A stretch of DNA of 32,000 bases. Origin: Neisseria sp. MVDL19-042950 (GTDB taxonomy: Bacteria; Pseudomonadota; Gammaproteobacteria; Burkholderiales; Neisseriaceae). The notes under the pieces were generated by a model, which had not been told where the DNA came from, did not search any database, and saw only the letters and a program-made list of their open reading frames with translations. The position numbers and the translations under genes were made by a program. This document shows, piece by piece, positions 23,881 through 25,022 of this stretch; position 1 is the stretch's first letter, and every line of letters begins with the position of its first letter. The stretch lies in contig NZ_JAUKWH010000005.1 in NCBI RefSeq assembly GCF_030504625.1, forward strand, positions 38,602 to 70,601, in the 5' to 3' direction.

Positions 23881-24267
23881 TCAATATCTGTTCTTTCTCA
23901 AAAAATCTGTCAATTCTTTGGAATGGTAAAACGCCATACAGCGGGCGAAAATCATGTTCATCTCGGTGTCGCCCGATTCTTCGCTGTGTATGCTGATGCG
24001 CTTTCGATGGAAATCGCCGGTTTTGTTTTCCACAAAATCAATCAGTTTCAGCCAGTCTGAAGGCGAATAACGCGGTTTCGGGTGGGAATAGTCTTGCAGG
24101 CTGCGGCGTTGGTAGAGGCCTGCTTTTTCATAGTTGCCGTTCAAGCATTCTTGCAGGGCGAAATCTCGGAAATCGAGATGCGGCACTCCGCCCGTGCCGG
24201 CGGCGGAAACGGCTGCCGGAAGCAGCAGGGCGGAGGCGACAATCAATGTGATGCTTTTGACCAACAT
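23881..24267 (-). CDS. tai4: Periplasmic Tai4-like immunity protein for the adjacent Tae4 amidase
   Basis: The start ATG overlaps the upstream stop (TAATG at 24265-24269), which suggests translational coupling. The signal peptide is MLVKSITLIVASALLLPAAVSAAG. The mature ~100-aa protein carries FALQECL and ARCMAFYHSKELTDFL, resembling the Cys-containing helices I recall from Tai4 proteins. The track start at 24282 is 5 codons upstream. Confidence 0.7.
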   Translation of the reverse strand: MLVKSITLIVASALLLPAAVSAAGTGGVPHLDFRDFALQECLNGNYEKAGLYQRRSLQDYSHPKPRYSPSDWLKLIDFVENKTGDFHRKRISIHSEESGDTEMNMIFARCMAFYHSKELTDFLRKNRY

Positions 24268-25022
24268 TAAGTCAGTTCCCAAAAAATCACTTTAACGGTC
24301 TGTATCGGGCGGTTGGGATTGGGCGACAGTCTGGCGAACCAGAAATAATATTCGCTGTCGTCGTCGCTTTCGTGGCCGCGGGCGTAGAGCATTTTGCTGC
24401 CGTCCCACAAGGTAAAGTGGCCGCTGGCGTTGCCCCAGCCTTCGACTTCAAACATCACGATGCCGGTTTTGCCTTTGATTTTCGCCAACACGTTTTGTTT
24501 GACGGAGGCAATTCTTTCTTGGAATGCGGCCGAATCGAAGTCGGCGTCGTCATCCGATTTCAAGCGCGGCGGGCAGTATTCGACGGTGCCTCTGCCGAAT
24601 TGTTTTTTGAGAAATTCGCCGAGTTCGCGCACTCTGAACCAGTGGTTTTTTTTGTCTTTGTCGCCGATAAACGCGCCGGCGCGGTTGGCGGGCAGGCGGA
24701 TGCCGCTGTGGTTCAGCGCGTAAGACATGCGTGCGGCGCAGGTGTTTTCCCAAACGGTCGGTTCGCGCTCTGCCAATTCCGCCCAGCGTTTGGAAATGAG
24801 CGGATAAAACTCGTGGCTGGGAATGGTTTTGTAGTGCTTAACCATATCCGCCCAAGCCGGTTTTTTGGGGCTGACGCGGGGGCGTGCGGTGCTGCCGGTT
24901 TGGGGTTTGGGTTTGGCGGGCTTGACCGGTTTGACGGGTTTGGCGGGTTTGGCGGGTTTGGCGGGTTTGGCGGGTTTGGCGGGTTTTGCCGATGTTGCTC
25001 TGGCCGGTGTCGTTTTTGCCAT
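24267..25022 (-). CDS. tae4: Tae4-family peptidoglycan amidase (T6SS amidase effector 4 fold) with N-terminal Lys/Pro repeat extension
   Basis: The C-terminal ~170 aa carries NTCAARMSYALNHSGIRLP (catalytic Cys; compare NACPIRMSYVLNATGFPI in Salmonella Tae4 as I recall it). It also carries GIVMFEVEGWGNASGHFTLWDGS (catalytic His; compare GIIVVKGHGWSNARGHVTLWNGS) and VIFWEL at the C-terminus. The N-terminus is MAKTTPARATSAKPAKPAKPAKPAKPAKPVKPVKPAKPKPQ with no signal peptide. A strong AAGGAG lies 7 nt before the ATG. Confidence 0.85.
   Translation of the reverse strand: MAKTTPARATSAKPAKPAKPAKPAKPAKPVKPVKPAKPKPQTGSTARPRVSPKKPAWADMVKHYKTIPSHEFYPLISKRWAELAEREPTVWENTCAARMSYALNHSGIRLPANRAGAFIGDKDKKNHWFRVRELGEFLKKQFGRGTVEYCPPRLKSDDDADFDSAAFQERIASVKQNVLAKIKGKTGIVMFEVEGWGNASGHFTLWDGSKMLYARGHESDDDSEYYFWFARLSPNPNRPIQTVKVIFWELT
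24906..24986 (-). repeat. In-frame 9-bp tandem repeat array (GGCGGGTTT on + strand) encoding (AKP)n/(VKP)n
   Basis: Five perfect units lie at 24942-24986. They are preceded by degenerate units gacgggttt, gaccggttt and ggcgggctt. Confidence 0.9.

Follow-up and report, generated by a model that had tools for sequence, protein, structure and literature searches.

The locus and its genes

The window, that is, the whole 32-kb stretch of DNA analysed here, belongs to an animal-associated Neisseria and carries, between cysS and obg, two overlapping genes on the minus strand, tae4 and a putative immunity gene of the tai4 type. The features of the locus are listed below.

22364..23776, strand not given: cysS, neighbour gene
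23861..26423, minus strand: conserved block obg–tae4–tai4, from the synteny comparison
23863..23872, minus strand: DNA uptake sequence (DUS) just 3' of the tai4 stop codon, from sequence analysis
23881..24267, minus strand: tai4-like putative immunity gene, ORF of 128 aa from the ATG, by remote homology a divergent member of the Tai4/Rap family
24265..24269, minus strand: TAATG stop/start overlap of the effector and immunity genes (stop 24269..24267, ATG 24267..24265, one shared base)
24267..25022, minus strand: tae4, ORF of 251 aa for a peptidoglycan amidase effector of the Tae4 family that lacks a signal peptide
25030..25035, minus strand: AAGGAG ribosome-binding site, 7 nt 5' of the tae4 ATG, read from the sequence
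25054..25088, minus strand: hairpin with a DUS in the obg–tae4 intergenic region, from sequence analysis
25160..26314, strand not given: obg, neighbour gene

A simple scan for a sigma-70-type promoter of tae4 found none. The hairpin between obg and tae4 may act as a terminator or attenuator, a weak one since the U-tract is absent. The window contains 32 DNA uptake sequences in all, and its proteins are identical to those of Neisseria sp. MVDL20-010259. A filamentous prophage lies 3 kb from the pair, with sodC, rpmE and cysS in between.

The effector is a member of the Tae4 family

The following parts of the effector gene were located.

24342..24752, minus strand: Pfam Tae4 domain, residues 91-227, from the Pfam search and alignment
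24417..24419, minus strand: codon (CAC) of catalytic His202, invariant in alignment A1 and aligned to the His motif of 4hfk
24738..24740, minus strand: codon (TGC) of catalytic Cys95, invariant in alignment A1 and aligned to the Cys motif of 4hfk

The 251-aa protein matched the Pfam Tae4 profile (PF14113) with 88.6 bits against a cut-off of 27 (E 4.6e-25), covering profile positions 1-124 of 125, and its profile matches in the PDB were the Tae4 entries 4hfk, 4jur, 4hff and 4j30 (E 7e-25 to 7e-22). Family-wide conservation in alignment A1 extends from about residue 43 to residue 251. The AF2 model has a mean pLDDT of 80.8, with values of 80-98 over residues 51-251, mostly above 85, and all 11 Foldseek matches at E <= 0.001 were Tae4 or Ssp1 structures (TM 0.65-0.81, target), so that the predicted fold is the papain/NlpC-P60-like one of Tae4. 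The catalytic motifs are NTCAARMSYALN at residues 93-104 and GWGNASGHFTLWDGS at residues 195-209; C95 pairs with the NACPIRMSY motif of 4hfk, GHFTLW of the effector pairs with GHVTLW of 4hfk, and both C95 and H202 are invariant in 15/15 homologues. HMM match, predicted fold and catalytic residues together place the effector in the Tae4 family, as the initial annotation had proposed from the contexts of the catalytic Cys and His. Copies in relatives already bear a Tae4 annotation. The effector itself had no exact entry in the protein collection, where a gap in the accessions (MDO1509895/…897) implies that it has been annotated. NCBIfam had no model matching either the effector or the immunity protein.

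Characterised Tae4 enzymes cut the gamma-D-Glu–mDAP bond of peptidoglycan, and by analogy the Neisseria effector would have the same bond specificity. We read the effector as being without a signal peptide, in agreement with the initial annotation, because its N-terminus is not hydrophobic.

The putative immunity protein is a divergent relative of Tai4

The second gene encodes a protein of 128 aa that is 100% identical, at equal length, to NCBI WP_302066451. It carries one further predicted feature.

24199..24267, minus strand: predicted Sec signal peptide, residues 1-23, VSA|AG, by inspection of the sequence

The initial annotation had described a translationally coupled gene for a protein with a signal peptide; the TAATG overlap is indeed there, and the signal peptide was judged by inspection, the N-terminus MLVKSITLIVASALLLPAAVSA|AG resembling a Sec signal peptide. 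The N-terminus is hydrophobic in 14 of the 17 aligned members of the immunity family (profile A3, gathered from genes 3' of tae4 homologues), the other three having been begun at an internal Met. To judge from its sequence, the protein would be located in the periplasm.

The Pfam searches suggested earlier gave a divided result, the Tae4 profile scoring above its cut-off and the Tai4 profile (PF16695) below it: the immunity protein reached 18.3 bits against a cut-off of 27.1, over profile positions 60-90 only. Sub-threshold Tai4 matches were found in 6 of the 17 family members, with a best E of 1.9e-4. Profile A3 also matched the Serratia structures Rap1b (4ax2, E 5.8e-4) and Rap2a (3zib, E 1e-3). 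We then aligned by hhalign profile A3 with profile A5, built from six bona fide Tai4 proteins that are each above the Pfam cut-off, and obtained a probability of 94.5% and E 8e-8 over 91 columns. In this alignment the conserved Cys residues correspond, C41 pairing with C50 and C110 with C113, and the remote homology spans the whole mature domain; Cys41 and Cys110 are invariant in the A3 family. A single-sequence AF2 model of the immunity protein has five helices at a pLDDT of 48.6, and a PDB fold search with it returned only noise. A word-indexed homologue search gave three matches, all of them from Neisseria. The earlier proposal of a Tai4-like partner is thus borne out by the profile methods but not at the Pfam cut-off, and we consider that the remote homology supports the assignment of this protein to the Tai4 superfamily.

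The pair belongs to a conserved three-gene block

The initial annotation had presented the genes as an orphan pair inserted between cysS and obg. The neighbours were correctly named, but an insertion of the pair is not supported: obg–tae4–tai4 forms a conserved block of ∼94% nucleotide identity to N. zoodegmatis and to Neisseria sp. Dent CA1/247, whereas both flanks are unrelated. Synteny with these genomes ends at 23863..23872, inside their DUS inverted-repeat terminator. In both of them the block abuts a vgrG–nuclease–immunity (VRR-NUC–DUF3396) island, and the VgrG (PF05954, PF04717, PF13296 and PF10106) is encoded 4-5 kb from tae4. The pair is therefore orphaned only locally. We suggest that obg and the pair move together as one unit of three genes, and that a rearrangement at the DUS-hairpin terminators would have placed cysS where the sister species carry the vgrG–VRR-NUC–DUF3396 island; the pair would therefore only look orphaned. 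A scan of the genome collection had no Neisseria locus among its 80 retained loci, so either the pair occurs sporadically or the genomes that carry it are not those taken as species representatives.

Relatives of the effector are linked to type VI secretion spike genes

VgrG, Hcp, PAAR and other type VI secretion system (T6SS) genes were sought in the window and none was found, as noted earlier from the sequence. Complete T6SSs have been published for this clade of animal Neisseria (PMC10210955). In Avibacterium and Rodentibacter (Pasteurellaceae), Acinetobacter, a Methylophilaceae MAG and Flavobacteriia, a VgrG or PAAR gene lies directly 5' of tae4; the PAAR–Tae4–Tai4 order has also been reported from Acinetobacter (PMC6838775). 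A match to the VgrG HMM was present in 34 of the 47 tae4 loci of the close subfamily. A conserved domain of ∼75 aa (YWxYG…SRHYxDLNLHI…EGE), here called A4, was found in 22 of these 47 loci 5' of tae4, either as the C-terminal domain of the spike gene or as a small stand-alone protein. It has no match in Pfam, and its only PDB match, the C-terminal part of the PAAR protein 8gra, is insignificant (E 0.87). We propose A4 as a candidate effector-specific adaptor that lies outside Pfam. The Neisseria copies are without the spike gene and the A4 domain that precede tae4 in related genera: A4 was found neither in the window nor in two 20-kb Neisseria loci, and a search of 5.8 billion proteins, which had limited sensitivity, gave no Neisseria match.

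Of the two roles considered in the initial annotation, cargo for a T6SS encoded elsewhere is favoured by the vgrG island, the T6SSs of the clade and the spike-linked homologues. By analogy with its relatives, this strain probably has a T6SS, on which the effector would depend.

The N-terminal tail is variable and confined to this clade

The effector begins with an extension for which two features were recorded.

24897..25022, minus strand: N-terminal extension, residues 1-42, Lys/Pro/Ala-rich, from composition, charge and pLDDT
24909..24986, strand not given: 9-bp tandem repeat GGGTTTGGC, 8.7 copies (TRF score 128, 91% matches)

A Lys/Pro/Ala repeat had been noted over the first ∼60 residues; the repeat is real, but the tail is ∼40 residues long. 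The (A/V)KP tract occupies residues 12-38, is followed by KP at 39-40, and is mostly encoded by the 9-bp repeat. By composition, the tail has a net charge of about +11.5 and no acidic residue, and it is predicted to be disordered, the AF2 pLDDT being below 50 at residues 1-13 and 21-50. All six aligned Neisseria relatives have four repeat units fewer, an in-frame difference of 36 nt. The tail is kept in the window genome, in several N. zoodegmatis strains and in Neisseria sp. Dent CA1/247, with all length changes in frame, and it is missing from all non-Neisseria homologues among the 150 best representatives from 1.84 billion proteins. Judged from these sequences, the tail occurs only in this Neisseria clade. 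We also considered that the tail might be left untranslated through use of a downstream start. We rejected this reading: the stretch from codon 1 to the conserved region holds none of the start codons ATG, GTG and TTG, and every difference in length preserves the frame.

Slippage of the 9-bp repeat would give rise to such a lineage-specific, disordered and polycationic tail. Since the tail is lineage-specific, predicted to be disordered and variable in length, a linker generated by slippage fits at least as well as a loading domain. In the likeliest reading it is not a defined domain but a linker that is tolerated, and would be functionally dispensable.

The tail could instead be a functional module, serving either in place of the missing spike or adaptor domain, as a tether to a VgrG, PAAR or Hcp from another locus, or as a binder of anionic envelope polymers in the target. 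The charge of the tail and its retention with in-frame changes only would suit such a role. Moreover, among the members that have an A3-type immunity gene and whose upstream sequence is complete and holds a housekeeping gene (obg), only the Neisseria copies are without A4, and only those copies bear the tail. However, this correlation comes from a single lineage, the tail is predicted to be disordered, its length differs even among close relatives, and a similar tail was found on no other protein of the window or of the fetched loci. To our knowledge, no described T6SS loading domain has a Lys/Pro/Ala-type composition (MIX, FIX, RIX and prePAAR were considered). We thus regard a functional tail as unlikely. 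That it represents a new N-terminal module of T6SS effectors, which would load a small amidase without the usual spike C-terminal domain or concentrate the enzyme on the anionic envelope polymers of the target, with slippage tuning its reach, appears distinctly unlikely.

A type VI effector–immunity module and its alternatives

We consider it quite probable that the pair is a type VI secretion effector–immunity module of animal-associated Neisseria, whose setting is explained by synteny and whose tail is a tolerated linker. The Tae4-family cysteine amidase (Cys95/His202), lacking a signal peptide, would be made in the cytoplasm and exported on or in the spike or tube of a T6SS encoded elsewhere in the genome; in the periplasm of a rival it would cut the peptide stem of the peptidoglycan. 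The co-translated 128-aa Tai4/Rap-type protein would be exported by the Sec pathway to the periplasm of the producer and block there the enzyme delivered by sister cells.

There is a minor chance that the pair is instead a vestigial orphan, in which tai4 is kept against the Tae4 of neighbours and the effector, no longer delivered, drifts to loss. The catalytic-His motif is lost in one N. zoodegmatis strain, NCTC12230, where a 15-aa in-frame deletion in Tae4 (P0028) takes out ASGHFTLWDGSKMLY, and the tai4 of another strain, L081, is split by frameshifts; the latter come from one long-read assembly and may be sequencing errors. Most substitutions in the pair are nonsynonymous: between the window and Dent CA1/247, 13 nt changes in tai4 cause 10 aa changes and 17 in tae4 cause 9, as compared with 6 aa changes from 32 nt changes in obg. 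Diversifying effector–immunity pairs likewise show a high nonsynonymous share, however. An adjacent spike gene is missing at the window locus, but there both ORFs are intact, the catalytic residues are kept, tae4 has a strong AAGGAG ribosome-binding site and the two genes are translationally coupled. The pair may nevertheless be decaying in this clade.

The second role considered initially is highly improbable. In it the Tae4 fold would have been repurposed, either for housekeeping work in cell-wall remodelling or as a lysin that acts independently of the T6SS, such as a phage-type endolysin whose cationic tail crosses the outer membrane. In its favour, one source gives a cluster member the name "phage associated protein", some endolysins of Gram-negative type are known to bear cationic tails, and the prophage is near. 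Against it, the closest homologues are linked to VgrG or PAAR genes, the effector lacks a signal peptide, no holin or lysis cassette lies nearby, and a dedicated immunity protein in the periplasm is what interbacterial toxins typically have. The prophage, being filamentous, is non-lytic, and three genes lie between it and the pair. A phage origin was also rejected by tblastn of 50,697 phage records, which gave one weak partial match, to a 1.4-kb record. Plasmid matches to the effector were distant canonical Tae4 genes only.

As an effector–immunity module, the pair adds one member to the T6SS arsenal of animal-oral Neisseria, and the synteny with sister species accounts for its seemingly orphan state. 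The coupling of this Tae4 subfamily, as a rule, to a conserved spike C-terminal or stand-alone domain outside Pfam may be of interest to T6SS specialists. As the Neisseria copies have lost the spike coupling and carry a variable polycationic tail, they offer a natural test case for the loading of small cargo effectors. The points on the spike domain and the tail leave the current understanding unchanged.

Comparison with known Tae4–Tai4 systems

The Tae4–Tai4 pairs of Salmonella Typhimurium and Enterobacter cloacae (PDB 4hff, 4j30, 4hfk, 4hfl and 4jur) share with the Neisseria pair the Pfam effector family, the Cys and His motifs and the predicted effector fold (TM 0.73-0.81, normalised to target). 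In all of them the immunity gene lies directly 3'. It encodes a small helical protein with a signal peptide in the characterised pairs, and in Neisseria a small protein with a predicted signal peptide that may likewise be helical. Identity between the effectors is only 20-25%, however, and the Neisseria effector has an insert at about residues 150-180 and a C-terminal extension of ∼40 aa, both of which are subfamily-wide, as well as the (AKP)n tail, which is confined to Neisseria. The canonical pairs sit inside T6SS clusters, whereas the Neisseria pair lies outside, and its immunity protein, unlike canonical Tai4, is under the Pfam cut-off.

Ssp1/Ssp2–Rap1a/Rap2a of Serratia marcescens (together with Rap1b; 4bi3, 4ax2 and 3zib) are likewise Tae4-family amidases with Tai4-family immunity proteins. 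The C..Y.S.eL motif of Rap1b and Rap2a aligns with the A3 profile, in matches that are marginal (E 6e-4 to 1e-3). Unlike the Neisseria pair, the Serratia genes are inside the T6SS cluster.

An orphan PAAR–Tae4–Tai4 set has been described in Neisseria dumasiana 93087 (Calder and Snyder 2023, PMC10210955), which is of the same animal clade and, like our pair, lies off the core T6SS clusters; it differs from the window pair in being preceded by a PAAR gene. It may represent a different Tae4 lineage, because it did not turn up in the 80 loci retained in the genome scan.

Further parallels are PAAR–Tae4–Tai4 of Acinetobacter (PGN2, Repizo et al. 2019, PMC6838775) and VgrG–Tae4–Tai4 of Avibacterium and Rodentibacter, which belong to the same Tae4 subfamily (44-56% identity, ∼215-240 aa) and have, as in Neisseria, an immunity protein of the A3 type. 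In these genera the effector has no tail and lies directly 3' of a spike gene ending in the ∼75-aa domain, whereas in Neisseria obg is found 5' of tae4 and the tail is present. The VRR-NUC and DUF3396 module that adjoins the Neisseria pair in the sister species has also been described beside Acinetobacter PAAR genes (PMC6838775).

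Tae4 identity of the effector and assignment of its immunity partner

We observed the two ORFs and the TAATG coupling described in the initial annotation between the following flanking genes.

22364–23776: cysS, flanking gene
23881–24267, minus strand: tai4-like ORF, 128 aa counted from the ATG (ORF call)
24267–25022, minus strand: tae4 effector ORF, 251 aa (ORF call)
25160–26314: obg, flanking gene

The stop codon of tae4 and the ATG of tai4 share one base; the tae4 ATG has an AAGGAG ribosome-binding site 7 nt upstream. The Tae4 call made from the sequence was borne out by Pfam, where residues 91–227 of the effector scored 88.6 bits against a cut-off of 27 bits, and by the invariance of Cys95 and His202 in the effector alignment. 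A profile of 15 homologues matched the solved Tae4 structures 4hfk, 4jur, 4hff and 4j30 (E 7e-25 to 7e-22) and, more weakly, Serratia Ssp1; the alignment with the solved Tae4 proteins begins at an RPSW motif, at about residue 55. The AlphaFold2 model is confident over residues 51–251, and all 11 of its Foldseek matches at E ≤ 0.001 were Tae4 or Ssp1 structures (target-normalised TM 0.65–0.81). In N. zoodegmatis and Dent CA1/247 the protein already carries the NCBI label Tae4. Whereas canonical Tae4 proteins have 155–175 aa, members of this subfamily have ∼215–240 aa, with an internal insert and a C-terminal extension; they were found in Aggregatibacter, Avibacterium, Rodentibacter, Acinetobacter, a Methylophilaceae MAG, Duganella/Massilia and Flavobacteriia. 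The exact 251-aa sequence was not found in a collection of 15 billion proteins. Neighbouring proteins from the same assemblies do occur there, with a slot for the effector in the accession numbering, and the deposited version may differ in start codon or repeat number.

The 128-aa protein scored 18.3 bits with Pfam Tai4, below the curated threshold of 27.1 bits, and a word-indexed search recovered three relatives, from Neisseria only. Genes directly 3′ of tae4 homologues in other genera clearly belong to its family. Cys41, Asp59, Cys110, Tyr114 and Ser116 are invariant in the 17 aligned sequences, which share the C-terminal motif C.xFYxSkeL. The family profile matched two Serratia proteins of the PDB, Rap1b at E 5.8e-4 and Rap2a at E 1e-3, and hhalign against six downstream proteins, each above the Pfam Tai4 cut-off, gave 94.5% probability (E 8e-8, 91 columns) with both conserved cysteines lined up. 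Because of these matches, the aligned cysteines and an N-terminus that by inspection resembles a Sec signal peptide, we treat the protein as a putative divergent Tai4/Rap-type immunity protein, though it falls below the Pfam threshold. The original Tai4 call is thus upheld as remote profile homology and not at the level of the Pfam family. The two genes form an effector–immunity pair of the known Tae4–Tai4 type, for which we infer the enzymatic specificity of the effector and immunity by the tai4 product.

In Oxalobacteraceae (Duganella, Massilia and Pseudoduganella; loci L006–L017, L021 and L025), the same Tae4 subfamily has a different partner, an unrelated Cys-rich signal-peptide protein of ∼220 aa that replaces the Tai4-like protein. 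These loci are without an upstream spike gene, and in most of them (10 of 14) the next ORF after the pair is short and VgrG-like.

The pair is linked to T6SS spike genes in relatives

The 32-kb window has no T6SS gene. Its sole segment matching N. zoodegmatis NCTC12229 and Dent CA1/247 is 23861–26423 (obg, tae4 and tai4; ∼94% nucleotide identity), with unrelated flanks on both sides. As the homology stops inside inverted-repeat terminators made of DNA uptake sequences (DUS) at both ends (23861–23872 and 26408–26434), these hairpins appear to be rearrangement or recombination junctions. In both relatives, tai4 is followed by convergent DUF3396/TsiV immunity genes, a 484-aa VRR-NUC protein and VgrG.

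L081:11150–17651 (NCTC12229): vgrG–VRR-NUC–DUF3396/TsiV module beside tae4–tai4; DUF3396/TsiV gene duplicated
L082:10432–14720 (Dent CA1/247): the same module; VgrG truncated (526 aa) and preceded by a LysM protein and a 132-aa protein

The same adjacency, judged by accession order, is seen in N. zoodegmatis NCTC12230 and a MAG. The nuclease/DUF3396 combination also adjoins PAAR genes in Acinetobacter (PMC6838775). Complete T6SSs have been published for this Neisseria clade, and in N. dumasiana an orphan PAAR gene is followed by Tae4/Tai4 (PMC10210955).

Outside Neisseria, the nearest homologues directly follow a spike gene, which in Avibacterium and Rodentibacter is VgrG and in Aggregatibacter a VgrG remnant at a contig edge. 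In this position Flavobacteriia have either VgrG or a small stand-alone protein, the Methylophilaceae MAG has a VgrG-type fragment at a contig start, and Acinetobacter has a 196-aa PAAR protein, in agreement with the PAAR–Tae4–Tai4 neighbourhoods of Repizo et al. (PMC6838775). Given the vgrG island in the sister genomes and this spike linkage elsewhere, the pair is therefore an orphan, as the initial annotation had it, only within the local window. The same observations favour one of its two proposals, cargo for a T6SS encoded elsewhere, and suggest that the pair depends on a T6SS in this strain. Insertion between cysS and obg was not supported, since the three-gene block is a conserved unit and it is the cysS side that changed.

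A conserved ∼75-aa domain forms the end of these upstream spike genes, (Y/H/F)WxY…S(R/K)(H/F)(Y/F)xD(L/M)NL…EGE…G…V, also written YWxYG…SRHYxDLNLHI…EGE…G.V. It closes the VgrG or PAAR gene directly before tae4 (L086:9711–9995, L003:9699–9983, L023:9628–9912 and others) and is also encoded as a stand-alone protein of about 120–160 aa. It had no match in Pfam and a single, insignificant similarity in the PDB, to the C-terminal part of a PAAR protein (E 0.87). Among the loci of the close subfamily, 22 of 47 have the domain ahead of tae4, against 0 of 43 more distant ones. We regard it as a candidate, and probably the, adaptor or docking domain specific to effectors of this Tae4 subfamily. It was not found in the window or the 20-kb Neisseria loci, nor in any Neisseria protein by a search of limited sensitivity.

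The Lys/Pro/Ala tail is a repeat tract specific to the lineage

A 9-bp tandem repeat, GGGTTTGGC, present in 8.7 copies at 24909–24986, encodes the Lys/Pro/Ala tract. Between codon 1 and the conserved region there is no alternative start codon, and therefore the tract is translated. Lys makes up 26% of residues 1–42, Pro 26% and Ala 24%, with a net charge of ∼+11.5 and zero acidic residues; the tail is predicted to be disordered (pLDDT < 50 at residues 1–13 and 21–50). All six aligned Neisseria relatives have exactly four XKP units fewer, a 36-nt in-frame difference. Close relatives begin 5–20 residues ahead of the conserved region, and a similar tract was not found in other homologues among the best 150 representatives from 1.84 billion proteins. 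In the window and the retrieved homologue loci, a search for further (AKP)n N-termini, of the kind proposed in the initial annotation, turned up no second ORF with such a tract.

Most simply, the tract can be read as a tolerated linker made by repeat slippage, a lineage-specific, low-complexity tail that possibly has no function. A role as loading tether or in envelope binding is kept alive because in the Neisseria copies gain of the tail goes together with loss of the spike domain upstream, a coincidence that rests on one lineage.

Evolution of the pair

Changes between the window and Dent CA1/247
obg: 32 nucleotide, 6 amino-acid changes
tae4: 17 nucleotide, 9 amino-acid changes
tai4: 13 nucleotide, 10 amino-acid changes

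The pattern in the pair shows signs of relaxed or diversifying evolution. In the Tae4 protein of N. zoodegmatis NCTC12230 (P0028), a 15-aa in-frame deletion removes the catalytic-His motif ASGHFTLWDGSKMLY, and tai4 of NCTC12229 (L081:10705–11122) is split by frameshifts. Both may point to a decaying module or else to errors of assembly; the frameshifts could also be sequencing errors. The pair may also be a vestigial ‘immunity-only’ module, but tae4 and tai4 are both intact in the window. A phage lysin or housekeeping enzyme is unlikely, given essentially no phage homologues, an enzyme without a signal peptide, a dedicated immunity protein predicted to be periplasmic and spike-linked relatives.

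Other features of the window

The window carries 32 exact GCCGTCTGAA uptake sequences within 32 kb, a density that identifies it as Neisseria DNA, and also priA, sodC, an OpuAC-permease fusion and an M3 peptidase. Six of its proteins are identical to proteins from three Neisseria assemblies, one being Neisseria sp. MVDL20-010259. The M3 peptidase, OpuAC and PriA cluster at 90% identity with N. weaveri, N. animaloris, N. zoodegmatis and N. dumasiana, and the M3 peptidase with N. dentiae too. A filamentous-prophage-like block (13727–20990, minus strand) is similar to the meningococcal Nf/MDA phages, and a capsule-export-type locus (1157–9194) has a gene arrangement like that of ctrABCD.

1157–3262: double GT2 glycosyltransferase (capsule-type locus)
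3390–4982: unassigned 530-aa protein (capsule-type locus)
5390–6589: Poly_export/SLBB; the locus also has an unassigned 382-aa protein (capsule-type locus)
7750–9194: ABC-2 permease and ABC ATPase (capsule-type locus)
13727–14290, minus strand: IS110-family transposase (prophage-like block)
14889–16046, minus strand: Zot (prophage-like block)
16348–18306, minus strand: TspB-like protein (prophage-like block)
19437–20990, minus strand: Rep_trans initiator (prophage-like block)
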